A stretch of DNA of 64,000 nt from an uncultured Bacteroidota bacterium (GTDB lineage Bacteria > Bacteroidota > Bacteroidia > Chitinophagales > Chitinophagaceae). The notes beneath the pieces were generated by a model. It saw only the letters and a list, made by a program, of their open reading frames with translations. It was not told the DNA's origin and did no database searches. The DNA lies in assembly GCA_963779325.1 (NCBI GenBank), contig CAVZXS010000011.1, positions 400,858-464,857 of the forward strand. The letters are read 5' to 3'. Shown piece after piece: positions 5,698 to 38,114 of this stretch. Each line of letters opens with the position of its first letter. The stretch's first letter is position 1. The position numbers and the translations under genes are program-made.

Positions 5698-6763
5698 TTA
5701 CTGTTGTGTTACCATTTTTTCCGAGTTCTCGGCAAACTGCAGCGCATCTATAAATTCCTGTATGTTTCCGTTCAAAACATCGTCAAGGTTATAAACGGTA
5801 AGCCCGATACGGTGATCGGTAACCCTACCCTGCGGAAAATTATAGGTTCTGATTTTTGCACTTCGGTCGCCTGTACTTACCAAGCTCTTACGCTGACGCG
5901 AAATCTCATCCTCCTGCTTGCGTACCTGCTCTTCGTATAACTTGGTACGCAGCATATTCATAGCTTTCTCGCGGTTGCCAAGCTGGCTTCGCTCCGTTTG
6001 GCAAACTACCACCACACCGGTAGGTATATGGGTTAAAAAAACTTTCGTTTCCACCTTGTTTACATTCTGCCCGCCGGCACCACCGCTCCTGGCCGTTTCC
6101 ATTTTTACATCACTCTCTTTCAATTCAAAATCTACTTCTTCAGCCTCAGGCATTACCGCTACGGTAGCGGCACTTGTGTGCACACGGCCGCTGGCTTCTG
6201 TATCAGGCACCCGTTGTACACGGTGTACACCGCTCTCAAATTTCAAGCGTACCATATACATCATCGCCGGTTACTTCCAATTGTACTTCTTTGTACCCGC
6301 CAACAGTGCCTTCACTTTCGCTGAGTATGGCTGTTTTCCATCCTCTTCTTTCGCAATATTTCAGGTACATTCTCAATAAATTGCCGGCAAATAAACTGGC
6401 TTCATCGCCACCTGTACCTGCACGTATTTCAAGTATAGCATTCTTTTCATCCTGCGGGTCTTTTGGTATCAGCATCTGGCGGATGACAGATTCCATTTTT
6501 TCTTTTTTTAATTCCAGTTCCGGCGCCTCAGCTTTAGCCAAATCTCTCATTTCCTCATCATCGCCGTTCAGCGCTTCTTTATAAAAATCTATATCCTCCA
6601 GAATTTTTCTGTACTCGTTATAAGCAGTCACAATTTTTTCCAGGCTGCGGTACTCTTTGCTGGTAGCTGTAAATTTTTTATTATCGTTTACAATCTCCGG
6701 GTTGGTAAGGGCAACACCCAAATTATCAAATCTTGCTTTTATTGCTTCTAACTTATCTAACAT
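5698..6763 (-). pseudogene. prfA: peptide chain release factor 1 (RF1), reading frame interrupted by a 1-nt indel near 6236-6264
   Basis: N-terminal ORF 6236..6763 (..[25 protein letters not shown]) and C-terminal ORF 5698..6264 ([42 protein letters not shown]) together recreate full RF1 (GGQ motif, [15 protein letters not shown] are RF1-type); junction CTTGAAATTTGAGAGC restores LKFESG if one base is removed. Confidence 0.85.
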
Positions 6764-6947
6764 TGAATCTGTATTTTTATGTCGTCAACTTATTATTTAC
6801 TATCATCGTCCCTTGCGTCGCACACTTGTACACCGGCAATTCTATTCAGCGCAGTCGAATACATTTTTCCGTATTCAATCATCTGCAATCAGAAAGGTCA
6901 ATATGCGCAGTTACCAATCGGACGAAGGGCAGCAAAGTTAACAATCT

Positions 6948-8163
6948 ATGGCATACCGCAAATTTCAGGCAGATCAATTATTTACTGGCTATAAACTATT
7001 GGCCCGAAACAACATATTAATAACCGATGAGGAAGGCATTGTACAGGATATTGTAGCGTCGGAAAGTGCGGGGGATGATATACAGATTTTGGAAGGCATA
7101 CTTAGTCCGGGTTTTATTAATAGCCATTGCCACCTGGAGCTTAGTCATTTAAAAAATATAATACCGCCGCATACAGGCTTGATTGAGTTTTTATGCTCAG
7201 TGGTTACTAAAAGAGAAGCCCCCGCCAAACCTCCCTCTGAGGGGGAGGCTTATGAAGACCCCGAACAATTAAAAATGCGGGCCATTATTGCAGCAGAAAA
7301 AGAAATGTATGATAATGGCATAGTGGCCGTAGGTGATATTGGCAATACAGCCGATACTTCACAATGTTAAAAGCACAAGCAATATCTATTGGCAAAATTT
7401 TGTAGAGGTAATAAGTTTTACCGATGCAAAAGCTGATGAAAATTTTGAAAACTATACCAAAGTTGCCAAAGAAATGGAATCCGCTCTCAGCACATCACGC
7501 ATTACTCATCGTACTTCTTTGGTGCCGCATGCTCCTTATAGTATCAGCCCAAGGACATTTCAAAAAATTAATGCGGCTACAAAAAATAAAATTATTTCCA
7601 TTCATAACCAAGAACACCCTGCAGAGGATGAGTTGTACAAAACCGGCGGCGGCGAATATTTAAAACTCTTTAAAATATTCGGAATGGATAAATCACCTTT
7701 TCCCGTTACCGGCCTGAGCAGCATCAGAAGTTATTTGCCTTATTTCAACAACGGGCAAACAATTTTTCTTATTCATAATACCTACATGCCCGAAGAAGAT
7801 ATTGTATTTGCCAATAACTATGCGGCCGAAAACGGGTTGACACTGATATACTGCTTTTGTATAAATGCAAATTTGTATATAGAAAACAAAGTGCCTGCTG
7901 TAGAAAATTTTATTAAGCACAATTGTCATATTGTATTGGGTACAGACAGTTACAGCAGCAATTGGCAGTTGAGTATCGGTAAAGAAATAAGCTCGATGCA
8001 AAAACATTTTCCGCAATTGGGTTTGGAGAAATATTTGCAATGGGCTACCATTAACGGCGCCAAAGCCCTGCACCGGGATGATCAATTGGGCAGTTTCGAA
8101 AAAGGTAAGAAACCGGGAGTTGTCTTATTAAATAAAAATTTTGACAGTAAAAGAATATTGTAA
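6948..8163 (+). pseudogene. metal-dependent amidohydrolase (chlorohydrolase/deaminase family), split by a frameshift near 7333-7370
   Basis: ORF 6948..7370 carries the N-terminal HxH metal motif (FINSHCHLELSHL) and ORF 7333..8163 the rest of the barrel (..IHNQEHPAEDE.., ..LGTDSYSSN..); 37-nt overlap in different frames. Confidence 0.65.
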
Positions 8164-8169
8164 TCAGTT

Positions 8170-8917
8170 CTAAAAAATTTCTTTAAGTACCGGTAAAGTT
8201 TTCATGGTACCAAAATCCTGTACATGCAGTGCATAATAAGTTTCATACGTATGCAGGAGTTTTCTTCTGAACTCGTGGTTGAGTTTTATATCTTCCAACT
8301 CTTCGGGCCGCATTACTTTTAATAATTCAGCTGTCATTAAAGCAGCAGCAGATTCAATAAAATGCGGATGCAGCGGTTGTTCGTTGGTAAAATTTCCCTC
8401 CTTCAGGTCAAAATATAAATTTTGCGTGCTTATCAGGTTTTCATTCAACGGGTTTGGCGGTATACCAAAAAAATTGGTTAGTTGCAATGCAAAGAACAAA
8501 GGGAAAGTTGGCTGTTACCGTTTCGCTGCTTTCATCAAGGTGTATAAAAGCATCTTCTGTAAAATGAAAGAGTTCTTCATTCGGTTCGGTTTGCTTGAGG
8601 CATTTAGTCAATAATTCAATCATAAATACAGCGACGGCATTTTTTTTTATATCAGAAAATATATGCTGATACAAAAAGCCCCACTTAAATTCTTTAATGC
8701 GTTGCAGTTGTTTTTGTTCACTGTGGTAAACGATCATATCCAGTAATGCACCGGGCTGAAAAAGGTTGGCCTTACCGCTGCCTTTTTTACTGCTTGTTCG
8801 CACACCATTTATCATATACGATTGCGTACCGAATTTTTCAGTAAACAACAATACAATCAAGCTGGTTTCACCGTATTTGGTGGCGCGCAGCACAATACCT
8901 TTCGTTTTGTGTGTCAT
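8170..8917 (-). pseudogene. recO: DNA repair protein RecO, split by a frameshift near 8441-8499
   Basis: N-terminal ORF 8441..8917 (MTHKTKGIVLRATKYGETSLIV..) matches RecO OB-fold N-domain; C-terminal ORF 8170..8499 continues; overlap in different frames at an A/G homopolymer region. Confidence 0.75.
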
Positions 8918-9135: not shown

Positions 9136-10074
9136 ATGAAAAAACAAAAATTAATCCTTTGCATTGCCCTATCCGTCTTTGCATTTACAGAAACACAAGC
9201 GCAGCATATTCCCGCACAAGACTCTACCGGTTTGCCCGGCGACAATTTCAGCCTGCAAGGCGCCTTAGGAATGTTTCAAAAAGCCAATTCAGTTGAAGAG
9301 TTTGAAAAATTAATAAACTCAGAAGATAATAGCGTCAACAATCTTGACTTGAACGGCGATGGCGAAATTGATTATATCCGCGTAATTGATAATAAAGAAA
9401 AAGATGCGCATGCCTTTGTATTGCAAGCTGCCATTTCCGGTACGGAAAGCCAGGATATAGCTGTAATAGAAATGGAAAAAACCGGCGATACAACTGCCAT
9501 TTTACAAATTATTGGCGACGAAGATATTTACGGTGAGCAAACAATAATAGAACCCGGCGAAGGTGAAGAAGACGAAATAGAAGAAAGCAATTACCCGCAG
9601 AGCGGCCCGAGCCCGGGTTATACTATGCATTATAAATACAAACCGCGTTTTATAGTAAATGTATGGTTTTGGCCGGCAGCTCGGTTTGTGTATGCACCGG
9701 CTTATGTAGTTTATCGTTCGCCTTGGGGATGGCGTCATCATCCTAATTGGTACAGACCCTGGAGACCTTTTCGTTGGCATGTTTGGCATCCGCTGAGATA
9801 TCGTCATCACCATCATTGTGCCGTAGTGCGTACGCATCGGGTAATTCATGCACACAATGTTTACCGACCTTACAGAACAACTTCAGTTGTTGTAAGAAAC
9901 AGGCATCAAACGACTGTAAATAACTACCGCGTAACGAGAAGTACTAAAAGAACTGTTGTAACAGGCCCAAGAGGAAATAAAGCAGTGGCAACTAAAAAAA
10001 CTACAACCGTTCGAGGTCCGGGCGGCAATGTAAAAGGAAGGAAAACTACTACAACTGTAAGAAAGAAAAGATAA
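9136..10074 (+). CDS. secreted hypothetical protein with His/Arg/Trp/Tyr-rich low-complexity C-terminal half
   Basis: 312 aa, signal peptide MKKQKLILCIALSVFAFTETQA, acidic middle (EGEEDEIEESNYPQ), then WFWPAARFVYAPAYVVYRSPWGWRHHPNWYRPWRPFRWHVWHPLRYRHHHH.. tail. Confidence 0.5.
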   Translation: MKKQKLILCIALSVFAFTETQAQHIPAQDSTGLPGDNFSLQGALGMFQKANSVEEFEKLINSEDNSVNNLDLNGDGEIDYIRVIDNKEKDAHAFVLQAAISGTESQDIAVIEMEKTGDTTAILQIIGDEDIYGEQTIIEPGEGEEDEIEESNYPQSGPSPGYTMHYKYKPRFIVNVWFWPAARFVYAPAYVVYRSPWGWRHHPNWYRPWRPFRWHVWHPLRYRHHHHCAVVRTHRVIHAHNVYRPYRTTSVVVRNRHQTTVNNYRVTRSTKRTVVTGPRGNKAVATKKTTTVRGPGGNVKGRKTTTTVRKKR

Positions 10075-10134: not shown

Positions 10135-10150
10135 TGCGGAGACTAAGGGA
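10135..10150. repeat. att core (left copy; partial duplicate of tRNA-Ser 3' end)
   Basis: identical to 20510-20525. Confidence 0.7.
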
Positions 10151-10267: not shown

Positions 10268-10289
10268 TGCTCCCCTTTTTGCTCCCCTT
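10268..10289 (+). repeat. 22-bp putative integrase arm-type site (left), TGCTCCCCTTTTTGCTCCCCTT (itself a tandem TGCTCCCCTT x2)
   Basis: identical 22-mer at 20436-20457 in the same orientation, each 50-120 bp inside the element ends. Confidence 0.6.
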
Positions 10290-10331: not shown

Positions 10332-11648
10332 ATGGGTACAATTCGTTTTGAACTCCGCAACGAAAAGACTGATAAAACAGGCAAAGCACCTGTACGAATG
10401 ATTTACCAAGTTAGCGGGCAACGTAAATACTATAATACAGGAAAAAAAGTACCTCCCCAAAGTTGGCACCCGGATAAACAGCAAGCTATTTACCTCGATA
10501 AAAAGACTGCAAAGAAATTACACCCGACAATTCCTTACGATTTACTTTTCACTCACAGCGAAACAGAAACGCTTAATAACGAACTTTCAGACCTGCAAAA
10601 ACAAGTGAAGGAAATTGAACATCGGTTTGAAATGGATAAAATTCCTTACTCCGCTGAAATGGTGATTGATAAACTAAATGACAATAAAAAACCAACTACT
10701 AAGAAAGAAGCTCCAAACAAAATATTATTTGATTTCATTGATAAGTACATTGAAGATCATAAAATGACAAGGGAGGCGGGGAGTTTAACGGTTTACAAAT
10801 CGTTGAAAAATCATTTACAGGATTACCAGCAGGCCACAAAAAAGAAAATAGCTTTTGATAAAATAGATTATTCTTTTTTTCAATCTTTCCAAAACTTCCT
10901 GATTGAAAAAAAGGGCTTAAACAATACCACCGTAGCTAAGCAACTAAGCACCGTTAAAACATTTCTTAACTATGCTAAAACACAGGGTATTGCCGTTACC
11001 GATAAGTATAAAGACTTTAAAATAAAGCGGGAAACATTGGAAGTAATTGCCTTAACCAATGAAGAATTTGAAGCCTTGTATTATCTCGACCTCTCGGCAA
11101 ACAAAAGACTTGCACAGGTACGGGACGTTTTTTGTTTTGCCTGTTCTACCGGGTTAAGGTATTCAGACCTCAATCAACTGAAACGGGAACACATAAAGCA
11201 TGATGAAATAAGGATAACGGTAAAGAAAACAAAAGAGCCTCTAAGCGTTCCCCTAACTCCGTATTCAAAAACCATATTAGCAAGATACGAAGCCATGCAC
11301 CGGCCCTTGCCTGTAATTAGCAACCAACGGTTAAATGATTATGTAAAAGAATTATGCAGCATGGCGGGTATTTCCGATCAGGTGGAAATAGTACGTTTCA
11401 GAGGTACGAAACGGGAAGCCATTACCTATAAAAAATATGAACTGATAGGAGTACATACCGGCCGTAAAACATTTGCCACACTATCGCTGGAAAGAGGAAT
11501 GAGTGCGGAGGAAGTAATGACAATCACGGGCCACAGGGATTACCAAAGTTTTAAACGGTATGTGAAGGTAACAGAGCAACGTAAAAAAATCGTAATGCTG
11601 AAAGCCTGGGGCGGCGAACTAAGTTCAATAAAGTTAAAAGCAATATAA
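10332..11648 (+). CDS. tyrosine site-specific recombinase/integrase with N-terminal arm-type DNA-binding domain (Bacteroidetes integrase family)
   Basis: 438 aa; N-terminus MGTIRFELRNEKTDKTGKAPVRMIYQVSGQRKYYNTGKKV typical of Bacteroides-type integrase arm-binding domain; C-terminal catalytic HTGRKTFAT...GHRDYQSFKRYVKV (R-H-R-Y). Confidence 0.9.
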   Translation: MGTIRFELRNEKTDKTGKAPVRMIYQVSGQRKYYNTGKKVPPQSWHPDKQQAIYLDKKTAKKLHPTIPYDLLFTHSETETLNNELSDLQKQVKEIEHRFEMDKIPYSAEMVIDKLNDNKKPTTKKEAPNKILFDFIDKYIEDHKMTREAGSLTVYKSLKNHLQDYQQATKKKIAFDKIDYSFFQSFQNFLIEKKGLNNTTVAKQLSTVKTFLNYAKTQGIAVTDKYKDFKIKRETLEVIALTNEEFEALYYLDLSANKRLAQVRDVFCFACSTGLRYSDLNQLKREHIKHDEIRITVKKTKEPLSVPLTPYSKTILARYEAMHRPLPVISNQRLNDYVKELCSMAGISDQVEIVRFRGTKREAITYKKYELIGVHTGRKTFATLSLERGMSAEEVMTITGHRDYQSFKRYVKVTEQRKKIVMLKAWGGELSSIKLKAI

Positions 11649-11656
11649 TTATCAGT

Positions 11657-12217
11657 ATGCAGATCATTAAAAGTATTCAAAACAGGATTTATGAAATAAG
11701 AGGCGAAAGGGTAATGCTTGACAGGGATTTGGCCGCACTTTATGAAACCGAAACAAAATCTTTGAATCTTGCTGTAAAACGTAATGCAAAGCGTTTCCCT
11801 CCCGATTTTATGTTTCAGCTTACCAAAACTGAATTTGAGGCTTTGAGGTTGCAAATTGAAACCTTAGAAAAATCAGACAATCCTTTGAGGTTGCAAAATG
11901 AAACCTCAAAAGGCAGGGGTGGCACAAGGTATTTACCCTATGCCTTTACCGAACAGGGCGTTGCCATGTTAAGCGGTGTATTAAACAGCGACAACGCCAT
12001 AAACATGAATATTGCTATTATGCGAGCTTTTGTAGAAGTAAGGAAGGTACTGATAAAACAAAATGATTTGAAAGAACAGTTGAAAGAGATAAAAGAAAGA
12101 TTGGGGGAACATGATGTACAACTGAATCAAATTTACGATGCAATGGAAAACCTGTTGGACGAAAAAGCAGCGGAGAGAAAGTGGGATGAAAGAGAAAGAA
12201 TAGGGTTTAAGAAATAG
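11657..12217 (+). CDS. ORF6N-domain protein (KilA-N-related DNA-binding/antirepressor-like)
   Basis: 186 aa; IRGERVMLDRDLAALYETETKSLNLAVKRNAKRFPPDFMFQL matches ORF6N domain; coiled-coil C-terminus. Confidence 0.7.
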   Translation: MQIIKSIQNRIYEIRGERVMLDRDLAALYETETKSLNLAVKRNAKRFPPDFMFQLTKTEFEALRLQIETLEKSDNPLRLQNETSKGRGGTRYLPYAFTEQGVAMLSGVLNSDNAINMNIAIMRAFVEVRKVLIKQNDLKEQLKEIKERLGEHDVQLNQIYDAMENLLDEKAAERKWDERERIGFKK

Positions 12218-12249
12218 ATTAAAATTTTAATATAAAGTGTAAAAGACTA

Positions 12250-14934
12250 ATGGAAAATAATCTTAAAAAAGAAACAATTGATTCATTCAATTTAGATATT
12301 TTTTTTCAGTTACATGGTACGTCGAAATACGCAAAGAGTGATAGCGACTTTCAGGTAATATTTGAAAGAGAAATGAAGGAGTTAAACGACGTAGGGTTAG
12401 CGATTACCAATAGAAGTAAAATTTTTCAAATCAAAGAAATAATTGCTGATGTAGAGAAATATATTAAGCGATATAATGAAGTTCGAACTTATAAAGCTGT
12501 TAGAAACAGGGGCTTACTTGAAGCTGCTCATGAGTTTATCAGTTGGTTGAAAATAAAAAAGGAAAGTCTAAGAGAACAGGGTAAGGAGGCAAATCACAGC
12601 AACAAAAAAAAGTCCTCGCTAAAAGAAAAATTATCTGAATCATTGACACAAAATAAATCTTCTGATATGATGGTTGATTGCGAGAAATGTAACAAGTTGT
12701 TTATAACGGAAATAAAGGATTTATGTAGCAATTGCAGCATACACAGACAAGTAAGTGATGTTAGGGAAAATATGATATTAAAGTTTGAAACACTCAGCAG
12801 TACAAATAATAAGAGTGCATTAATTGATTACCTTAAAGAGAAAATAGATAAAGGGAATAAAATTATAATAGATACTATAGACGGGGACTCACTACACGCA
12901 GACGATAATTACAGAAAAAATAGAGTTGCAATAATACTTAGCTGGAAAGATTGCGTGAAATATTATAGCGAACAATTGGATTTGCTGAATGATGCAGCCA
13001 CAAAAAATAATAATGAAGACCCTATTTTCTCAGGCTTAGAGCCTCCCCGATATTATTATGCAATTGATAACGGAAATTTTCGAATTACCAACAACGCTAC
13101 CCCGGAACAAATAAATAGTCTTGTTAAGAAAATTCAAGCTACAAACACAATGAAGTTTTGTAATGAACTAAAAAGTAAAACTGCTGATGAAATACCGGCA
13201 TACTTAGATTTTCATTTACGATGTTTTAAACGTAATGGGGGCAACCCTTCTGAGTGGCTTATCTATACAAAAAAGCAAATGCCCGGCGGTTTTTCGCATC
13301 AACAACAGGATGCTTTTTTGTTGTGGTTTGAAAACAACCGGTTAAATAACGAAACTAAAACCGGAAATGATATGCCCGAAGATAATCTAAACCATAATTC
13401 ACGGCAATACAAAGAAGCATTTGAAAAATATAATACTGCCTGCAATGAGCTAAGAAAAAAGTACAGGGTAGAATATATTATTACAAAGGAAGATTTGGAA
13501 GATATCCCCAACGCAAAAGAAGGTGATAAAACAACTACAAATCCACCTATCCCAAATAATACTAAAGAAGCATTTGAATTATTTAAAAACTACTATGGCG
13601 CTATACAACTTGAAGTGAATAAATTACACTTTTGCCAAAAATACCTCGCATGGAATGAACCTGCTATCAAAGCAGAAATAAAAATTATTGAAGACTGGAT
13701 AAACAAGGCGGAACAAATAAAGTATTCAGATTGTGCTATTAACCCGCAAGGCAATATTGAAAACTCTCATAGTCAGGAACATGAATATTTAAGATTAAAG
13801 AATGGGTTTTATGAAAGCTATTTAATGACGTGGGAGCAACACCAATATACATCAACTGCTTCAACTGTTTGCGGTAGGTATTTTTTATTTTATGAGTATC
13901 TTAAAGAATTAGTAAAAGGTGAAATTTGTAAGGTTCCCTCAATAATAGAAGCTATAAGGAATAATCCCAAAATCTGTGATGAAATACTATGGTCATATTA
14001 TAATATGGTAGATCAACCTAAAGAAAGACCTAAAAATTATGTAGGGCCACTTTGGAGGCACAATGCACCTTATCAGGTAAATATTTATGGAGCTTACCCA
14101 CTAATGAGCCAGTGGGAGATTTTGGAAATGCACATGGCTAATGTCGATGATAAAAGCGGGTATTACAAAGAATACAAAAAGGAGAAAGTTTTTGAATCGT
14201 TAAAGGATTATGCCAAAGGTTTTCGATTTGGCTTTGATAATTTTTTTGTTGATATAGCAAAAGAGAAATTAACTTCTGAATTGACCCGGGAAGAAAAAGT
14301 TTTTGCGATTATTGATTATTTGACAAATCCCTTTAACAGATCTGGCTTTTCCATATCACGCGGAGTAGGTGATGTTTTTTCAGGTTGGTATGATGACGGG
14401 GTAAACGGAGGGAAATACTATTGTGCGTGGTATTTTATAATGAGTAACCACCGACTTTTTGAGCCTCATTTTAAAGAAAAAAATAAACTCCCAGAAAAAG
14501 ATGAGAGCGGAGATTTTATAGAAGCTAATTTCGAAGAAGCAGCCGATGCAACTCGTGATTTGATTACTAAACATCTTCATTGCCTTTCAGGTAAATGGAG
14601 AGGTGTGCAAATAATGACTAATGATGAGTACGAAAGACTTATTAAATACGCTCTATACACCTTTAAAAATACAAAACTACCTTTGAAAATAGAGGCAATA
14701 AAAAAAGGCCAAAGCAAAACTCCAGAGTTATTTTACAGGCAAACAATATATCTGTTTTGGAAGATTGAACTAAAGGGAAATAAAGAGCATAGGCAGGATT
14801 TGTGGATTGATTTTTATAAAAAGATTTTCGCTCCATTTTGTAAGAATATTAAGAGTGAATGGAGTAAAAATTTTTCTAAATCTTACAAAAGCTATCCGGC
14901 GGATAAAAATAATATAGATTACACTAAAGCATAA
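12250..14934 (+). CDS. large hypothetical protein (894 aa), cargo of the integrative element; no recognisable catalytic motif
   Basis: intact 2.7-kb ORF, Lys/Glu/Asn-rich, one CxxC..CxxC cluster (CEKCNKLFITEIKDLCSNCS), several aromatic-rich blocks (GWYDDGVNGGKYYCAWYF). Confidence 0.6.
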   Translation: MENNLKKETIDSFNLDIFFQLHGTSKYAKSDSDFQVIFEREMKELNDVGLAITNRSKIFQIKEIIADVEKYIKRYNEVRTYKAVRNRGLLEAAHEFISWLKIKKESLREQGKEANHSNKKKSSLKEKLSESLTQNKSSDMMVDCEKCNKLFITEIKDLCSNCSIHRQVSDVRENMILKFETLSSTNNKSALIDYLKEKIDKGNKIIIDTIDGDSLHADDNYRKNRVAIILSWKDCVKYYSEQLDLLNDAATKNNNEDPIFSGLEPPRYYYAIDNGNFRITNNATPEQINSLVKKIQATNTMKFCNELKSKTADEIPAYLDFHLRCFKRNGGNPSEWLIYTKKQMPGGFSHQQQDAFLLWFENNRLNNETKTGNDMPEDNLNHNSRQYKEAFEKYNTACNELRKKYRVEYIITKEDLEDIPNAKEGDKTTTNPPIPNNTKEAFELFKNYYGAIQLEVNKLHFCQKYLAWNEPAIKAEIKIIEDWINKAEQIKYSDCAINPQGNIENSHSQEHEYLRLKNGFYESYLMTWEQHQYTSTASTVCGRYFLFYEYLKELVKGEICKVPSIIEAIRNNPKICDEILWSYYNMVDQPKERPKNYVGPLWRHNAPYQVNIYGAYPLMSQWEILEMHMANVDDKSGYYKEYKKEKVFESLKDYAKGFRFGFDNFFVDIAKEKLTSELTREEKVFAIIDYLTNPFNRSGFSISRGVGDVFSGWYDDGVNGGKYYCAWYFIMSNHRLFEPHFKEKNKLPEKDESGDFIEANFEEAADATRDLITKHLHCLSGKWRGVQIMTNDEYERLIKYALYTFKNTKLPLKIEAIKKGQSKTPELFYRQTIYLFWKIELKGNKEHRQDLWIDFYKKIFAPFCKNIKSEWSKNFSKSYKSYPADKNNIDYTKA

Positions 14935-15025
14935 AAACCAATCTCAATAAGGGTTTCGCTAACCCTACATTCCCGCTCTTTTTCCCGCTCATCCCTACTT
15001 CTAAGTTGCGTTCAAATTAATAAAA

Positions 15026-15316
15026 ATGACGCAACAAATCACAACCACACTTTCAGAGGGCGAATTAACTGCGCTAATTGAAAATGCTGTAAACAAAGTC
15101 GTACAGCAAATACCCGACAATCAAAAAATCAAAAGCACTCCTATCTCAAGACGGGAATTAATGAATCGGTTAAACATAAGTGAGCCGACAGTGATACGTC
15201 TCGAAAAAAAAGGTAAAATTCCATGTATGCACATCGGCTCGGCCGTAAGGTATGATTGGGAAGCAGTTATTGAAGCATTGGAAAGTAAAAAGAAAAGTGG
15301 AGGGTCTCAAAAATGA
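15026..15316 (+). CDS. excisionase-like helix-turn-helix DNA-binding protein
   Basis: 96 aa; ISRRELMNRLNISEPTVIRLEKKGKIPCMHIGSAVRYDWEAV resembles the Xis/MerR-like HTH_17 domain common in Bacteroidetes mobile elements. Confidence 0.6.
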   Translation: MTQQITTTLSEGELTALIENAVNKVVQQIPDNQKIKSTPISRRELMNRLNISEPTVIRLEKKGKIPCMHIGSAVRYDWEAVIEALESKKKSGGSQK

Positions 15317-15606
15317 AACACTCCACTAAAAAATCTTTGACTCAGCAAAGCAAAGATAAAAAATATAAAACAGAATTGAGGATAGTTTTTGATGCTTTTT
15401 TTAAGCAGCCAATGACTATGAAAGAACTGTCAGTAAAGTATAACGTTGATAGAGCCTCCATTTGTTGGTATTGCAGGGAGTTTCGGCTAAACAATCAAAT
15501 TGCAATAGTAAAAAAAGTGTATTGCAGCATTACAAAACATCTTGCCAACCGATACACTACCAACCCTGCATTGTTTCCTGTTTCATCACAATTAAAAATG
15601 TTTTGA
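15313..15606 (+). CDS. hypothetical small protein (translationally coupled to upstream gene, ATGA overlap)
   Basis: 97 aa; possible HTH (MTMKELSVKYNVDRASICWY). Confidence 0.4.
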   Translation: MKHSTKKSLTQQSKDKKYKTELRIVFDAFFKQPMTMKELSVKYNVDRASICWYCREFRLNNQIAIVKKVYCSITKHLANRYTTNPALFPVSSQLKMF

Positions 15607-15609
15607 TGT

Positions 15610-16779
15610 ATGGAACAAATAAAACCTCAATTCGATTTTGATAAATTCGGAATCGGCAGTATCCCGCCGTCCGAAACGCTGGAGCATGTCAACGGGTTTA
15701 TCAATAACACTATTAGCGATGCTGCGAATCAAAATAATTTGAATCCGCTCAAAGAATTTGAAAGACTGCGCATAACGGATACTACACCGATAAAGCCGCC
15801 TGTACCTGTTATTACTATCAATGGCGAAACTATAAGCACGGAAGGAAACCTGACTACCATAAGCGGTGCCAGTAAAAGCGGCAAAAGTGCGTTTAGCAGC
15901 ATACTCATTGCGGGGGCAATAAGCAATGACGGTGTTATTGACGGATTAGACAGTGTAGAAGTTCAACCCAATACAAACTGTAAAGCCGTATTACATTTTG
16001 ATACCGAACAGGCCCGGCATAAACATCAATACAATGTCAAGTCTATTCTTAAAAGGGCGGGTATGGAAAAATGCCATGAATACTTTCTGTCTTACAATAT
16101 TCGGGAATTGGATATAAGCGATTACGCAACTATCACCAATGACATTTGCCACGCAGCCGAAGAACAGTTTGGCGGTATCCACTTGGTTGTAATTGACGGT
16201 ATTGCTGATTACATAAGCGATGTAAACGACCCTATACAATCCAACGCTATTGTAAAGTTTTTTGAAGAGTTGGCAATTAAGCACCAAACGCCGATAATTA
16301 TTATTGTACATACCAACCCCGGCAGTGATAAAGAGAGAGGTCATTTGGGCAGTCAGTGCCAGCGCAAAAGCGAAAGTGTAATAATGGTAAAGACAGAGGG
16401 AGACATTTCATTTATTGAGCCTAAGTTTTTGCGGATGGCCGGCAAGGGCAGCATACCGCTCATTCAATTTATGTACGATAAAAATAAAGGTTACCATGTC
16501 GGGTGCGGAATAAGAACAGATGACAATGCAAAGAAAGATGCAGAACGTATTGCAGCAATTGAAAAAATATGCGGTAAAGTTTTTGGCGGACAAAAAGCAC
16601 ATGCTTACAGCGATGCGATTGCCGCCATAATGCGGGAGACGGATAAAAAAGAAAGAACAGCAAAGGATATGTTTACCGAAATGAAAGCGCATGAAATGAT
16701 AATACAGGGAGGTGATAAAAATTGGCGACTAAGCACCGGGCAAAGCGAAGAAACAGAGGAAGACAACTTGGTGCAGTAG
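15610..16779 (+). CDS. RecA-superfamily ATPase, RepA/DnaB-like (AAA_25-type) replication protein
   Basis: 389 aa; Walker A SGASKSGKS, Walker B IHLVVIDGIADY, RecA-fold core; typical of plasmid/phage replicative ATPases. Confidence 0.6.
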   Translation: MEQIKPQFDFDKFGIGSIPPSETLEHVNGFINNTISDAANQNNLNPLKEFERLRITDTTPIKPPVPVITINGETISTEGNLTTISGASKSGKSAFSSILIAGAISNDGVIDGLDSVEVQPNTNCKAVLHFDTEQARHKHQYNVKSILKRAGMEKCHEYFLSYNIRELDISDYATITNDICHAAEEQFGGIHLVVIDGIADYISDVNDPIQSNAIVKFFEELAIKHQTPIIIIVHTNPGSDKERGHLGSQCQRKSESVIMVKTEGDISFIEPKFLRMAGKGSIPLIQFMYDKNKGYHVGCGIRTDDNAKKDAERIAAIEKICGKVFGGQKAHAYSDAIAAIMRETDKKERTAKDMFTEMKAHEMIIQGGDKNWRLSTGQSEETEEDNLVQ

Positions 16780-17109: not shown

Positions 17110-17487
17110 TTACAGAATAAACCGGATAGCTGCCAACTCTTTACCTACTTGCTGCACACCCTTCAAAATACGCAGCGTTTGGACAGGCGAAGGTTTTTTA
17201 TTACCGTTGATGTATTGCGCCAAAAGACTTTGGTTAATGCCTATACGTTCAGAAAGAGCTTTAGCATTAATTACTTTGTAAAACGCAAAGAACTGCGGCA
17301 AGTCCAAACTTATTTTCAAATCACTTTCATCAACGACTTTTCCTTGCTTCTCAAAGTGAAGATTAAGGGCTTCCAGCATGTTGGCTTTAAGTTCTTCCAA
17401 AGAATCGCCAACAGTATAAACAGGATATTTTTCAGCATAGGCCGAATAACCTGTTTTAGTTCTTTCAACAATCATTTCAATTTTCAT
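17110..17487 (-). CDS. hicB: type II antitoxin HicB (RNase-H-like N-domain plus C-terminal HTH)
   Basis: 125 aa; MKIEMIVERTKTGYSAYAEKYPVYTVGDSLEELKANMLEALNLHFE matches HicB/UPF0150 fold, C-terminal ALSERIGINQSLLAQYINGNKKPS HTH. Confidence 0.8.
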   Translation of the reverse strand: MKIEMIVERTKTGYSAYAEKYPVYTVGDSLEELKANMLEALNLHFEKQGKVVDESDLKISLDLPQFFAFYKVINAKALSERIGINQSLLAQYINGNKKPSPVQTLRILKGVQQVGKELAAIRFIL

Positions 17488-17499
17488 AACTCACTATTT

Positions 17500-17685
17500 T
17501 TATTTTATACCTGCATCTTTTTTTATTTTCTTTTCCAATCCTTTACCCACTTCATGGCTGCCATGATACGGGCAAACAATTTGGCCCTTTTTAACAGGGT
17601 GTTGCATAATCATGTGGCTGCCCGTTTGCCTTACAACAAACCAACCGTCTTTTTTAAGCAGTCTTACCAGTTCGCCGGATTTCAT
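17500..17685 (-). CDS. hicA: type II toxin HicA (mRNA interferase)
   Basis: 61 aa; MKSGELVRLLKKDGWFVVRQTGSHMIMQHPVKKGQIVCPYHGSHEVGKGLEKKIKKDAGI is a near-textbook HicA (YcfA-like) sequence; directly upstream of hicB. Confidence 0.85.
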   Translation of the reverse strand: MKSGELVRLLKKDGWFVVRQTGSHMIMQHPVKKGQIVCPYHGSHEVGKGLEKKIKKDAGIK

Positions 17686-17713: not shown

Positions 17714-19084
17714 ATGCAAACACATAATCTAAAGCCATTGCCCAAACTTGAATTAGATAAAAAACGATTTCGGGTGAAAAGTTGCCCCTGTGGCAGAAGC
17801 AATAAGGACGGCAAATTTGTTCCCTATACAGGTTATGAAAATAAAGGCTATTGCCATTCATGCGGTGAAACATTTTTACCCGAACTAATAAAGAGTGAGC
17901 AATGGAATACCTCCCCTCCAAAAGCATACAGCAATCGGAGAACTATTGCGCCGAACCAAAAACAGGTTTCCTTTATTCCGGTCGAGGTATTTAAAGACAG
18001 CTTGAAAAATCATGAGACAAACCATTTTGTAAAATACTTAATTGAACTTTTTGGGATTGAGGTTACAAATGAATTGATAAGTAAATATTTTATCGGTACA
18101 TCAAATCATTGGCCCGGGGCAACCGTCTTTTGGCAAATTGATATTATCGGTAAAATAAGAACAGGCAAGATAATGCTGTACAATACTGATACGGGTAAAA
18201 GAGTAAAAGAGCCTTTCAATCATATTCAATGGGTACATAAATTGATTGACTACCCTGAGTTTGAATTAAAGCAATGTTTTTTTGGCAGTCACTTGTTACA
18301 TAATAAAACTAAACCCGTCGCAATAGTTGAAAGTGAAAAGACCGCAATCATAGCAAGTGTTTATTTGCCGCAGTTTATTTGGTTGTCCGTTGGCGGTGTT
18401 GACGGCTTGAACACCGAAAAATGCAGTGTACTAAAAGGGCGAAATGTTACACTCTTCCCGGACCTTAACCGCTTTGAAAATTGGAGTACTAAGGCAAAGG
18501 AGTTGTTAGTAAATGTTAGTGTTTCAGATTTGTTGGAACGCAAAGCAACCGAAGCAGAAAGAAAACAGGGGCTTGACCTTGCCGACTATTTGATAAAGTT
18601 CGATTACAAAGATTTTGCACTTGCCGAAACCCTCACGCAACATAATTTCAAAAATTTTCAAAAACTTTCAACATTAGAGCCGGCACCAACAGAAACCTTC
18701 CTAAAACCTCTAAATGAACTGTTAACTTATGTTAACATTGAAGGGTCTTTACCTCTACATCCGGCAATTGAAAAAACTACCGTAAAACGACGTGAAAACG
18801 CCGATAAAACCTCGGTAAAACCACCGCACAATCCAATTATAAAAGAATCACCAAAGCCCGAAAATTGGGAACAGGATATTACTGAGCTCGAAAATTATTT
18901 TGAAAGCATTGCAATCCCGCCCGGTCCCTTAATGCTGAACCAATGCGGTATAATAATAAATATTCCCTTATTCATTGAAAGCCATATTGCCACCTTGAAA
19001 GCAAATAACGGTAAGCTGACATTTGCACCGTTTTTAAGCAGGTTACAAACTTTAAAAACGATACTTCAAAATGAAAAACACTAA
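17714..19084 (+). CDS. putative DNA primase (N-terminal Zn-binding motif plus Toprim-like domain)
   Basis: 456 aa; CPCGRSNKDGKFVPYTGYENKGYCHSCGETF zinc ribbon; VESEKTAIIASVYLP ... FPDLNRFENW resembles Toprim E / DxD motifs. Confidence 0.55.
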   Translation: MQTHNLKPLPKLELDKKRFRVKSCPCGRSNKDGKFVPYTGYENKGYCHSCGETFLPELIKSEQWNTSPPKAYSNRRTIAPNQKQVSFIPVEVFKDSLKNHETNHFVKYLIELFGIEVTNELISKYFIGTSNHWPGATVFWQIDIIGKIRTGKIMLYNTDTGKRVKEPFNHIQWVHKLIDYPEFELKQCFFGSHLLHNKTKPVAIVESEKTAIIASVYLPQFIWLSVGGVDGLNTEKCSVLKGRNVTLFPDLNRFENWSTKAKELLVNVSVSDLLERKATEAERKQGLDLADYLIKFDYKDFALAETLTQHNFKNFQKLSTLEPAPTETFLKPLNELLTYVNIEGSLPLHPAIEKTTVKRRENADKTSVKPPHNPIIKESPKPENWEQDITELENYFESIAIPPGPLMLNQCGIIINIPLFIESHIATLKANNGKLTFAPFLSRLQTLKTILQNEKH

Positions 19085-20435: not shown

Positions 20436-20457
20436 TGCTCCCCTTTTTGCTCCCCTT
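20436..20457 (+). repeat. 22-bp putative integrase arm-type site (right copy)
   Basis: identical to 10268-10289. Confidence 0.6.
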
Positions 20458-20511
20458 CCATAAAATTAAAATGCAAATAATTGTAAATTAATTATTTGCG
20501 AAAATAAGTTG

Positions 20512-20598
20512 CGGAGACTAAGGGATTCGAACCCTTGATACAGTTTCCCGTATACACACTTTCCAGGCGTGCTCCTTCAACCACTCGGACAAGTCTCC
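20512..20598 (-). tRNA. tRNA-Ser (anticodon GGA), class II with long variable arm
   Basis: reverse complement reads GGAGACTTGTCCGAGTGGTTGAAGGAGCACGCCTGGAAAGTGTG...GGGTTCGAATCCCTTAGTCTCCG; anticodon loop CT-GGA-AA; its 3' end is the att core of the adjacent integrative element. Confidence 0.85.
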
Positions 20599-29210: not shown

Positions 29211-29281
29211 TGGCTTATAGTTCAACGGAAGAATGCTGTGCTACGAACGCAGTGATATAAGTTCGAGTCTTATTAAGCCAA
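29211..29281 (+). tRNA. tRNA-Arg (ACG), AT-rich divergent
   Basis: clean cloverleaf: acceptor TGGCTTA/TAAGCCA, D arm GTTC-AACGGAA-GAAT, anticodon arm CTGTG-CTACGAA-CGCAG, T arm ATAAG-TTCGAGT-CTTAT. Confidence 0.6.
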
Positions 29282-29326
29282 CAAAAGTTGATGACCTGTA
29301 GCTTAAGTTTTTCAGTCATCACAAAA

Positions 29327-29401
29327 TGGTTCGTAGCTCAATTGGATTAGAGCTTCCGGTTTTTACCCGGAAGGTTGTGAGTTCGAATCTCACCGGGCCA
29401 A
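29327..29401 (+). tRNA. tRNA-Lys (TTT), divergent (two G-U pairs in acceptor)
   Basis: acceptor TGGTTCG/CGGGCCA, D arm GCTC-AATTGGATTA-GAGC, anticodon arm TCCGG-TTTTTAC-CCGGA, T arm GTGAG-TTCGAAT-CTCAC. Confidence 0.55.
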
Positions 29402-29405
29402 CAAA

Positions 29406-29483
29406 GGGAATATAGTTCAACGGCAGAATCCCGCACATGCGGGATTAAGCCATCAGATGAATGTTCGAATCATTCTGTTCCCG
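29406..29483 (+). tRNA. tRNA-like pseudogene (acceptor, D and T arms intact; anticodon arm replaced by a 6-bp/4-nt-loop hairpin)
   Basis: GGGAATA...TGTTCCC acceptor, GTTC-AACGGCA-GAAT D arm, GAATG-TTCGAAT-CATTC T arm, but central TCCCGC-ACAT-GCGGGA cannot form a 7-nt anticodon loop. Confidence 0.35.
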
Positions 29484-29487
29484 CAAT

Positions 29488-29574
29488 TGTGAGTTCGACA
29501 AAGATGGAGAGTTGTAGCAGACTGTAAATCTGTTGTTCAAAATACTGAGATGGTTCGAATCCATCCGCTCACAC
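29488..29574 (+). tRNA. tRNA-Tyr (GTA), class II, slightly non-canonical spacing
   Basis: anticodon arm GCAGA-CTGTAAA-TCTGT matches the bacterial tRNA-Tyr anticodon arm; long variable region; T arm GATGG-TTCGAAT-CCATC; acceptor TGTGAGT/GCTCACA. Confidence 0.45.
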
Positions 29575-29577
29575 AAT

Positions 29578-29661
29578 GGAGAGAGTCCGGTTGGTCGAGG
29601 AAGCTGTCTTGAAAACAGACCGGGTGTAATAGCCCCAAGAGTTCGAATCTCTTTCTCTCCG
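29578..29661 (+). tRNA. tRNA-Ser (TGA), class II
   Basis: acceptor GGAGAGA/TCTCTCC, anticodon loop CTTGAAA, T arm AAGAG-TTCGAAT-CTCTT (same T arm as E. coli tRNA-Ser UGA), long variable arm. Confidence 0.6.
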
Positions 29662-29816
29662 CCGGTGAAAACATCCCCTCCACGGAGGGGCGAGTTGAGG
29701 AAAACATATTGCTATAGGAGACCGGGGTGGGTTGCTGAATAGCCATATGCAGCACAAGTGTGCGACGCAAGGGACGATGACCGGAGTTACTACAGCCGGT
29801 AACAAAAAAATAGTTT

Positions 29817-29901
29817 GGAGAGTTGACAGAGTGGTAATGTAATGGCCTGCTAAGCCATACATCGTTTATTCGGTGCAAAGGTTCGAATCCTTTACTCTCC
29901 G
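29817..29901 (+). tRNA. tRNA-Ser (GCT), class II
   Basis: acceptor GGAGAGT/ACTCTCC, anticodon arm ATGGC-CTGCTAA-GCCAT, T arm AAAGG-TTCGAAT-CCTTT, long variable arm. Confidence 0.65.
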
Positions 29902-29962
29902 CTTTAATCAACAAAGCTTTAGCGAAGTTGATAAATTGTTTGACAATGGGTGAATTCGATAG

Positions 29963-29982
29963 CCTGCCTGCCGGCAGGCAGG
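29963..29982. repeat. perfect 20-bp palindrome CCTGCCTGCCGGCAGGCAGG
   Basis: near-identical 21-bp copy at 30269-30289. Confidence 0.7.
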
Positions 29983-30015
29983 TGAGGAAATAGTAATCAA
30001 TCAATACTCATTTCA

Positions 30016-30087
30016 AACAACCGGACGAATAGCTCCAATGGCAGAGCAGCGGTTTGAAGCACCGTGGTTATAAGTTCGAGTCTTATT
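30016..30087 (+). tRNA. tRNA-Phe (GAA)
   Basis: canonical 72-nt cloverleaf: acceptor GGACGAA/TTCGTCC, D arm GCTC-CAATGGCA-GAGC, anticodon arm GCGGT-TTGAAGC-ACCGT, T arm ATAAG-TTCGAGT-CTTAT (identical T arm to the tRNA-Arg at 29211). Confidence 0.65.
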
Positions 30088-30253
30088 TCGTCCGCGTAGA
30101 AAAGTACAATAAGAAAAAAGATGAATAAAGAACAAATGTCGAATGGAGCGTCGCCAATGTCGCTATATCAGGGAACAGAAGTTGGAAAACAAAATACTCC
30201 TTCGCTAAAGCTACGGAGTACAAGAAAAATTTAAATACCCTGCGGGGAAAACA

Positions 30254-36868: not shown

Positions 36869-38114
36869 TTGATAGTTGAAAGAAGAAAGGTAACTGGAAA
36901 TTCCATTAAGGAAAAAGGCGTGGAGTACAATGTTTTTGGTGCCAAGCATATTGAAGAGGGTGCTTTGCTGCAAATGCAAATAGCTGCTAAATTACCCGTG
37001 GCTGTTGCCGGTGCATTGATGCCGGATGCACACCAGGGCTACGGCTTACCGATAGGCGGTGTATTGGCAACAGATAATGCCGTTATTCCGTATGCGGTGG
37101 GTGTGGATATTGGTTGCAGAATGTGTCTAAGCATTTTTGCCATCAATCCCGATGAGTTGAAAAAGAGAGAAGCTAATTTTCAACGGGAGTTAGTGGCCAA
37201 TACATTGTTTGGTGCAGGAAGAGAATTCAGTACCGAACACTGAACATGAAGTACTGGACAGAAAAGAATTTACTGAAATAAATTTCTTGCAACCATTGCA
37301 GCATAAAGCATTAAAGCAATTGGGCAGCAGCGGCAGCGGTAATCACTTTGTAGAGTTTGGTAAAGTAGAAATTACGGACGAGAACAACCCGATGGGATTA
37401 CCGGTTGGTAATTATGTTGGTTTGTTAAGTCATAGCGGCAGCCGCGGTTTGGGCGCCACCATTGCCAATCACTATACACAAATTGCCATGCAAAAAACAC
37501 CGTTGCCGAAAGAAGCCAAGCATTTAGCATGGCTTGGGTTGGATACTGAAGAAGGAATGGAATACTGGCTGGCCATGAATTTGGCGGGTGATTATGCTTC
37601 TGCCTGTCACCATACCATACATGCAAAAATTGCAAAAGCCATTGGTGAAAAACCGTTAGCCATGGTTGAGAACCATCACAACTTTGCATGGAAAGAAATG
37701 TATGAAGGAAAAGAAGTGATTGTACACCGTAAAGGTGCTACACCTGCGGGTAAAAATGTATTGGGAATAATTCCGGGCAGTATGACGGCACCGGGCTTTA
37801 TAGTAAAAGGTAAAGGTGAATTGACTTCTTTAAATTCTGCAAGCCATGGCGCCGGGAGAAAAATGAGTCGCAGCAAAGCATTAGTCAATATTACCCATGA
37901 TGCATTGAAAAAAGAATTGAAGGAGCATGGTGTGAAATTAATAGGCGGCGGATTGGATGAAGCGCCGTTTGCTTACAAAGACATTCATGAAGTAATGCAA
38001 TGCCAAACAACGTTGGTAGATGTACTGGGGAAATTTTACCCGGTTATTGTACAAATGGATGGTAATGATCCAAGAAAACACAGGAAGAGAAGGGATGAAG
38101 TAGCAGGTGAATAG
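36869..38114 (+). pseudogene. rtcB: RNA-splicing ligase RtcB, split by a frameshift near 37209-37243
   Basis: N-terminal ORF has MPDAHQGYGLPIGGV..AVGVDIGCRM; C-terminal ORF has GSGNHFVEFG, LLSHSGSRGLG, HHNFAW, HRKGAT, IIPGSMTAPGFIVKG, SASHGAGRKMSR - all hallmark RtcB motifs. Confidence 0.85.

Follow-up and report, generated by a model that had tools for sequence, protein, structure and literature searches.

Within a 64,000-nucleotide stretch of DNA from an uncultured Bacteroidota bacterium (contig CAVZXS010000011.1; the whole stretch is hereafter the window) lies a 10.4 kb integrative element, bounded by 16-bp direct repeats at tRNA-Ser(GGA). Directly upstream of its excisionase-type gene the element carries an open reading frame (ORF) for an 894-residue protein, which we call X894. 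We find that X894 is a real, intact gene, and profile searches identify its product as a member of a large, undescribed and domain-shuffled family, whose modules are, as judged from these comparisons, drawn from a shared pool that recombines between elements. The place of X894 in the gene order suggests that it may serve the element backbone as an accessory of excision.

The X894 locus

The genes of the element run in the order int, ORF6N, X894, xis, g97, the AAA_25 ATPase gene, a 72-aa gene, HicB/HicA (on the reverse strand) and the DUF6371+DUF6965 gene, after which there remain a 149-aa helix-turn-helix (HTH)-like gene, a 70-aa gene and a lipoprotein gene. The features are as follows.

10135-10150, forward strand: attL, 16-bp direct repeat TGCGGAGACTAAGGGA, identical to 20510-20525
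10268-10289, forward strand: tandem motif TGCTCCCC-tttt-TGCTCCCC (22 bp) near attL
10332-11648, forward strand: int, tyrosine integrase (Arm-DNA-bind_5, Phage_int_SAM_5 and Phage_integrase in Pfam)
11657-12217, forward strand: ORF6N-domain protein (PF10543, E=3.7e-35)
12250-14934, forward strand: X894, 894-aa modular protein, ATG start, stop codon included
14935-15025, forward strand: X-xis gap, 91 bp, with TTCCCGCTC twice, at 14970-14978 and 14982-14990
15026-15316, forward strand: xis, HTH_17 excisionase-type gene (PF12728)
15313-15606, forward strand: g97, 97-aa protein, overlapping the end of xis and conserved in related elements
15610-16779, forward strand: AAA_25 ATPase (PF13481)
17110-17487 and 17500-17685, reverse strand: HicB and HicA, toxin-antitoxin pair
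17714-19084, forward strand: DUF6371 + DUF6965 protein (PF19898, E=1.7e-65), a backbone marker common with Tn4555
20436-20457, forward strand: the 22-bp tandem motif again, close to attR
20510-20525, reverse strand: attR, repeat TGCGGAGACTAAGGGA, within the 3' end of tRNA-Ser(GGA), 20511-20598

An earlier reading of this DNA from its letters alone (hereafter the sequence-only reading) had described an intact 894-aa frame at 12250-14934, which the ORF listing bears out, and both neighbours that it named are also in place, ORF6N (PF10543) on the 5' side and the HTH_17 excisionase-type gene on the 3' side. The G+C minimum of the window falls over X894 (0.32-0.35 against ~0.39 for the window overall). 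The protein is rich in Lys, Asn and aromatic residues, F+W+Y making up 12.7% as the earlier description of aromatic-rich blocks would lead one to expect, and has an isoelectric point of 8.0. By hydropathy it is soluble, with no transmembrane segment and a best 19-residue score of 0.70. The cysteine cluster reads CxxC-x11-CxxC (C144, C147, C159, C162); the x16 spacing given previously was wrong.

Profile and sequence searches with X894 returned no Pfam, PADLOC, NCBIfam, PHROGs or PDB-sequence match, with 0 families of PADLOC-DB v2 at E<=0.1. A sub-threshold NCBIfam match to TIGR03826/YvyF covers residues 142-167 alone (17.9 bits against a cut-off of 124), and the sole match found in the PDB profile search, to a telomerase domain at 0.003, was judged to be chance. 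The searches gave no enzyme-family match, in agreement with the nuclease, ATPase and methyltransferase motifs having been reported absent.

Around X894, the 22-bp tandem motif lies just within both ends of the element, with five matches in the window against 0.98 expected, and the TGCTCCCC tandem makes a likely candidate for an arm-type protein-binding site. The HicA call rests on PF07927 HicA_toxin in a 61-aa product, and HicB (125 aa) was named from its position, its own match being a faint HTH_19. The DUF6371+DUF6965 protein may be primase-like. In PADLOC the ORF6N gene product hits three models of the candidate-defence family PDC-S05 (lowest E 1e-56), and one PDC-S05 representative with a RhuM domain is reported to give ~1000-fold protection against T7 and T5 (preprint 10.1101/2024.09.26.614923). 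The ORF6N gene at 11657-12217 may be the real defence cargo of the element. A scan for sigma-70 promoters and terminators was uninformative, with counts equal to those of shuffled sequence; Bacteroidota promoters differ from that consensus.

Modules, folding and selection

Whether X894 appears as an orphan, as first described, depends on the search. A word-indexed search of 5.8 billion proteins supports the description, returning three proteins: X894 itself, a fragment from a second copy, and one protein sharing residues 390-555. Exhaustive searching with HMMER, over 1.84 billion cluster representatives, does not, since it found 404 relatives at E<=1e-3, 56 of them at E<=1e-30, which align to separate blocks of X894. 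Every source labels the family proteins 'hypothetical'. Relatives were absent from GTDB representative genomes and IMG/VR and present at one locus in JGI metagenomes, and tblastn against INPHARED phages and PLSDB plasmids gave zero matches. The blocks define six modules, whose limits and numbers of relatives come from a local jackhmmer search of 150 listed relatives; the counts are among those listed.

12250-12654, forward strand: module A, residues 1-135; jackhmmer coverage ~0, sole relative the paralogue P0005
12655-13014, forward strand: module B, residues 136-255; Zn-ribbon CxxC-x11-CxxC plus helices, ~13 relatives
13015-13389, forward strand: module C, residues 256-380; ~12 relatives, e.g. 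P0134, P0135, P0140 and P0035
13390-13917, forward strand: module D, residues 381-556; helical with a beta-hairpin, ~84 of 150 relatives and so the commonest module, pLDDT mostly >90
13918-14484, forward strand: module E, residues 557-745; helices and loops, Gly/Pro/aromatic-rich, ~50 relatives, pLDDT mostly >90
14497-14931, forward strand: module F, residues 750-894; tail type T0, ~25-40 relatives by jackhmmer

Module A differs between P0001 and P0005 at 3 of 135 positions (~98% identical). Module B occurs alone or combined with other modules, and its cysteines are kept, C144 in 10 of 11 sequences with this column and C147, C159 and C162 in 14/14; the two conserved CxxC knuckles identify it as a Zn-ribbon module, with metal binding predicted. 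Single modules are found as well as the combinations D+E, D+F, E+F, C+F, B+F and C+D, and in P0018 the order is reversed (D...C). Module F, when present, is always C-terminal. After masking of B-E the C-terminal tails fall into ~10 types, of which the F type (T0) comprises 32 proteins. Mutual homology of the tail types could not be demonstrated by hhalign, and we do not claim that all are one fold (F type against T5, 26%; T2 against T10, 90%; T4 against T9, 47%).

The family proteins are apparently non-enzymatic. Conservation in D-F falls on Gly, Pro, aromatic or hydrophobic residues, without a catalytic-looking set, and the conserved residues of module E include G717, G721, Y724, W727 and F737. 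In a Pfam scan of 62 long relatives only P0106 (L007 674-3319) had a domain of note. Its module D is joined to a C-terminal Mrr_cat restriction-endonuclease domain, the one fusion to an enzyme that the family showed, and a convergent HTH_17 gene follows.

A structure model of residues 381-894, spanning D-E-F, reached a predicted local distance difference test score (pLDDT) of 93 on a 55-row alignment. Searched against PDB and BFVD (viral) structures, as the sequence-only reading had proposed, this confident model found no fold match, winged-helix folds included. Modules D, E and F are therefore confidently predicted to fold, without a relative among solved or viral structures. The full-length AlphaFold2 (AF2) model, built on a 3-sequence alignment, had a pLDDT of 37.7 and was unusable. 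A MAFFT alignment of 149 full-length relatives recovered 41% of HMMER-aligned residue pairs, and fragment alignments with the full-length or D-E-F query wrongly stacked B, C and F fragments together; the D-E-F alignment was mended by entering natural D+F proteins as unsplit rows.

A second copy of the element provided a measure of selection. In the ENA contig L001 this copy is frameshifted, and the same gene is intact in NCBI as P0005 (1005 aa). Codon comparison with the L001 copy gave 0 differences over the 120 codons of module B and ratios of nonsynonymous to synonymous substitution rates (dN/dS) of 0.38 in C, 0.20 in D, 0.34 in E and 0.19 in F, ~620 codons in all; module A figures from L001 are unreliable because the contig has frameshift errors. 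These ratios indicate purifying selection in both gene copies, and together with the folding of residues 381-894 they support the earlier suggestion that the gene is under selection.

The argument first offered for selection, an intact ORF amid frameshifted genes, holds less well. The split genes are there: RecO, an amidohydrolase, RtcB and a release factor each lie in two ORFs in the flanks of the element, and the element genes are all intact. However, as L001 is frameshifted where P0005 is intact, at least part of the splitting is assembly error. At least some frameshifts in the assemblies of this sample being technical, intactness among broken genes is weak evidence, and the case for selection rests on dN/dS. 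The split flank genes (window 5698-8917 and 36869-38114) may be long-read indel errors or real pseudogenes of a degrading genome. The release factor is split near residue 175 (PCRF / PCRF+RF-1), which is not the programmed prfB site, and its breakage would be remarkable if real.

The two copies also differ in history along their length. By blastn the window gene is 92% identical to the L001 copy up to 14527, where L001 has ~400 extra bp; identity falls to 73% across F, the gap and xis and returns to 94% from 15617 on. The g97 gene has no DNA similarity between the copies, and its flanks are 92-94% identical. Synonymous divergence (dS) is 0.19-0.35 in C-E and 1.7 in F. Such contrasting values imply parts with different histories, consistent with the module shuffling of the family, and mark module F as an old allele relative to the paralogue. 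F, the X-xis gap, xis and g97 form a divergent block that is possibly a specificity cassette. This 73% block hinted at co-variation of F with the excisionase or the operator, for which the wider comparison gave no support: L013, L014 and L015 have one xis type and different tails, and F-type elements carry unrelated repeat motifs. L001 has further features of its own. Beyond the diverged second element copy (10584-11508 and 11662-12782), an attR-proximal segment is followed directly by an attL/int segment 99.9% identical to the element of the window. The int of this segment is cut by an insertion sequence (rve, HTH_Tnp_1), and the DUF6371 gene of the copy is split, with an rve-domain ORF inside the split. 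The arrangement suggests that two related elements accumulated in tandem at a single att site.

Genomic context of the X slot

A co-directional HTH_17 gene lies 72-145 bp downstream of the X-family gene at nine of the 12 loci with enough sequence (the window, L001, L002, L004, L009, L010, L029, L030 and L031; L003 is the window element in its ENA assembly and was counted with the window). At L007 the HTH_17 gene is convergent, and L005/L006 and the short contig L008 have none. The association spans two backbones, one with xis, AAA_25 and DUF6371 (window, L001, L009) and one with xis and Rep_1 (L004, L029, L030, L031). The elements at L029 and L030 look like four-gene units, int-X-xis-Rep_1, with unmapped ends. 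At L031 the interval between int and X holds a complete type I restriction-modification (R-M) system along with two small ORFs, and X still adjoins xis, which implies that cargo enters between int and X. The sequence-only reading had called X894 itself cargo. With X-family genes next to xis on two backbones and in possible four-gene elements, and with R-M cargo elsewhere at L031, the context does not support that description.

The position between int and X is occupied by ORF6N in the window, by another ORF6N at L028 and by a RhuM/Bro-N-like gene at L033. An ORF6N or RhuM/Bro-N-like gene stands between int and the slot gene in 4 of ~20 elements (window, L001, L028, L033), so that the co-occurrence with ORF6N singled out earlier for checking is not general.

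For a wider comparison, 18 elements were retrieved through the DUF6371 protein, from Saprospiraceae, Bacteroidales, Flavobacterium, Chitinophagales, Flectobacillus and Chlorobiaceae. Absence from related elements had been named as a sign against the earlier view, and the X family indeed has no match in these 18; but every one with int and xis has a single Pfam-less helical protein of 220-500 aa in the X slot, and some of these carry tail types of the family (F type in L014 and L015, T4 in L012, T6 in L013, T1 in L028). Most related elements have element-specific tandem direct repeats, of period 9-12 bp and thus spaced by one helical turn, between the slot gene and xis. In the window the corresponding TTCCCGCTC tandem repeat is a candidate operator of the xis operon. 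At L029 we read by eye, downstream of X, a hairpin with a T-run behind it that resembles a terminator and is consistent with separate transcription units.

One family member departs from this pattern. P0006 (D+E+F; L005/L006) lies outside any recognisable element, near dnaA, beside HicAB and an AAA_15/AAA_23/SMC_N ATPase. At L005 9349-9929 a HicA/HicB pair related to that of the window stands immediately upstream of P0006, at a site without an integrase. We also observed DUF6371-backbone elements in Chlorobiaceae metagenome-assembled genomes (L022, L023, L024, L025), which suggests that this element type crosses the Bacteroidota-Chlorobiota boundary. PTL_trimer-domain proteins occur near, and may or may not belong to, two Rep_1-type X-family elements (L029 6325-10245, L030 10365-11537).

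The gene order of the window is that of a known transposon. In Tn4555 the order is integrase, TnpC, excisionase, AAA ATPase and DUF6371 protein (PMC13183296), and an extra Tn4555-encoded protein is needed for optimal excision (review PMC5704250). The order was confirmed by copies on Bacteroides and Butyricimonas plasmids (L032, L034). X894 therefore occupies the TnpC slot of a Tn4555-type backbone: like TnpC it lies between integrase and excisionase, with the AAA ATPase and DUF6371 genes downstream, and neither protein has a Pfam domain. The extra excision protein is reportedly TnpC, as is said to have been described by Parker and Smith in 2004. TnpC has 276 aa, 618 relatives (one named 'tnpC' by a source) and, read by eye, two apparent transmembrane helices at its N-terminus. 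In contrast, X894 has 894 aa, no transmembrane-like segment, a Zn-ribbon and different modules. Homology was rejected on a BLASTP best E=12 and on hhalign, where the TnpC C-terminus scored 0.6% against the F-type tail and <=0.6% against other tails, with a TnpC profile that is shallow (members >=76% identical). Sharing the slot and no homology, X894 stands in place of TnpC and is not a member of the TnpC family.

A comparable arrangement may exist in NBU1, like the window element a small tRNA-integrating element, from Bacteroides; its excision needs several products, more than Int and the recombination directionality factor (PMC5704250). The likeness to the window element is one of general type. 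We take the NBU1 gene order to be int-orf2-orf2x(xis)-orf3-prmN1, presumably with an uncharacterised gene in the equivalent slot.

Possible roles of X894

We tentatively propose, with a probability of about 0.4, that X894 is a backbone-linked accessory of the Tn4555-like element family, which gates or assists the adjacent excision-replication operon. The proposal follows from X standing beside xis at nine of 12 loci and on two backbones, from the arrangement at L031, and from purifying selection. Mechanistic steps beyond position, selection and architecture are ones that we infer. X894 is probably soluble and non-enzymatic, the latter because it has neither a catalytic-looking conserved set nor an enzyme-family match, and would consist of an N-terminal region, the Zn-ribbon module and four helical modules. 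In the integrated state it would probably be transcribed together with int. The adjacent xis-replication operon could then be its site of action or its target, reached by way of the tandem repeats between X and xis or by way of Int/Xis, and in this manner the protein might set the timing of element excision and replication. The exchangeable N-terminal modules may be sensors or adaptors for different signals, for instance from a helper conjugative element or a phage, or from the state of the host. X894 would then be an analogue, though not a homologue, of TnpC, the Tn4555 excision helper whose slot it shares.

Several observations weigh against this proposal. No homology ties X894 to excision or regulation, TnpC included, and searches with the confident D-E-F model revealed neither an HTH nor any other DNA-binding fold. 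Tail type tracks neither excisionase type nor repeat motif across elements, and the different tails are not demonstrably homologous. One relative, P0106, is fused to a nuclease, and P0006 sits outside any element. Diversity as extreme as that of the slot proteins is typical of cargo hotspots too; in the defence hotspots of P2 phages and P4-like satellites, for example, a fixed position is always filled by highly variable genes. The P2/P4 hotspots, however, hold recognisable and mechanistically mixed systems, whereas the X slot holds Pfam-less helical modular proteins that share modules, and at L031 the real R-M cargo lies outside it.

Known regulators of excision offer analogies. RteC (PF09357) of CTnDOT is encoded just upstream of the excision operon that it activates, and the logic proposed here for X894 would be the same by analogy. 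The idea that the X894 C-terminus is RteC-like was supported by neither Pfam nor fold searches: Pfam RteC is absent from X894 (E<=0.1), from the 62 long relatives and from 7 slot proteins (E<=0.01). The Stl-type master repressors of phage-inducible chromosomal islands (Staphylococcus aureus pathogenicity islands, SaPIs) are hypervariable, are encoded beside int/xis, sense helper proteins and gate excision and replication. Here too the resemblance is one of analogy only, since Stl has an HTH and ~250 aa, unlike X894, which is without a detectable HTH and co-directional rather than divergent.

A further-reaching version of the accessory proposal, which we regard as doubtful, is that X894 represents a new class of modular switch proteins with novel folds, in which sensor modules are joined to a terminal module coupled to the excision-replication operon. 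Such proteins would play in Bacteroidota the part that Stl-type helper sensors play in phage-inducible islands, taking cues from helper element, phage or host. Equally new would be anti-phage sensors hard-wired beside the excisionase, with infection triggering escape of the element. Resistance genes (e.g. cfxA) spread through the Bacteroidota on small integrative and mobilizable elements, Tn4555 and the NBUs among them, and to our knowledge little is understood of what sets the timing of element excision apart from Int, Xis and helper regulators. New here is a wholly unannotated family, with 404 detectable relatives, whose slot adjoins the excisionase gene on its upstream side in two or more backbones. 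If X proteins gate excision or sense helpers, this would explain when such elements move and would supply sensor modules that are naturally exchangeable; should they prove to be defence proteins, the family would be a new one with new folds. It merits a name and a Pfam entry for each module.

The possibility of defence was raised from the outset, the sequence-only reading having suggested a defence, anti-defence or exclusion function. On this view the slot upstream of xis could be a cargo hotspot and the X family its payload, the proteins being sensors or effectors in a conflict system to the advantage of host or element, with shuffling driven by an arms race. We consider this unlikely, though it accounts readily for the extreme diversity and module shuffling, for the Mrr_cat domain of P0106 and for the HicAB/ATPase surroundings of P0006. 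The PDC-S05 match of the neighbouring ORF6N, with phage resistance reported for one representative in the preprint cited above, points the same way, and in four-gene elements X could be the sole payload. Yet X894 has no PADLOC model, no relative appears in phage or plasmid records or IMG/VR, and 61 of the 62 long relatives lack an enzymatic or NTPase domain. Slot occupants are uniformly Pfam-less and helical, unlike the mixed enzymology of known defence hotspots. Genes of defence type do adjoin family members at some loci (type I R-M at L031, HicAB with the AAA_15/23 ATPase at L005, ORF6N/PDC-S05 in the window), but the constant neighbour, at nine of 12 loci, is the excisionase, and X keeps its place beside it at L031, where the true defence cargo sits elsewhere.

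It is less probable still that X is an adaptor for transfer or hitch-hiking, linking the excised element to a helper coupling protein or to phage packaging, with variable modules that match different helpers. Neither the ORF listing nor Pfam shows a relaxase or mating-pore gene in the window element, so the element needs a helper or is non-transmissible, and backbones of the Tn4555/NBU1 type are mobilised by conjugative transposons, with excision dependent on helper regulators (PMC5704250). In L033 the F-type profile found its best match, a weak one, in a protein annotated 'mobilization protein', but at 11.7 bits against 20 database sequences this match is very weak, and the protein belongs to no assigned family. 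Neither sequence nor fold searches found anything in X894 that resembles a relaxase, coupling protein or packaging protein. That X894 is a decaying or spurious ORF without function, as its lack of annotation in any source and the many split genes of the surrounding genome might suggest, is effectively refuted by dN/dS of 0.19-0.38 over ~620 codons, 404 relatives, the conserved Zn-ribbon cysteines and a pLDDT of 93 for residues 381-894 on the 55-row alignment.

Two further features of the window lie outside the element. Just beyond attL (9136-10074) is a gene for a 312-aa secreted-looking protein, for which no convincing family match was found and whose C-terminal half is rich in His, Arg, Trp and Pro (e.g. 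RHHPNWYRPWRPFRWHVWHPLRYRHHHH). At 29211-30095 there is a cluster of six tRNA genes, including one ARAGORN call with an undetermined anticodon ('ca', 29406-29484).

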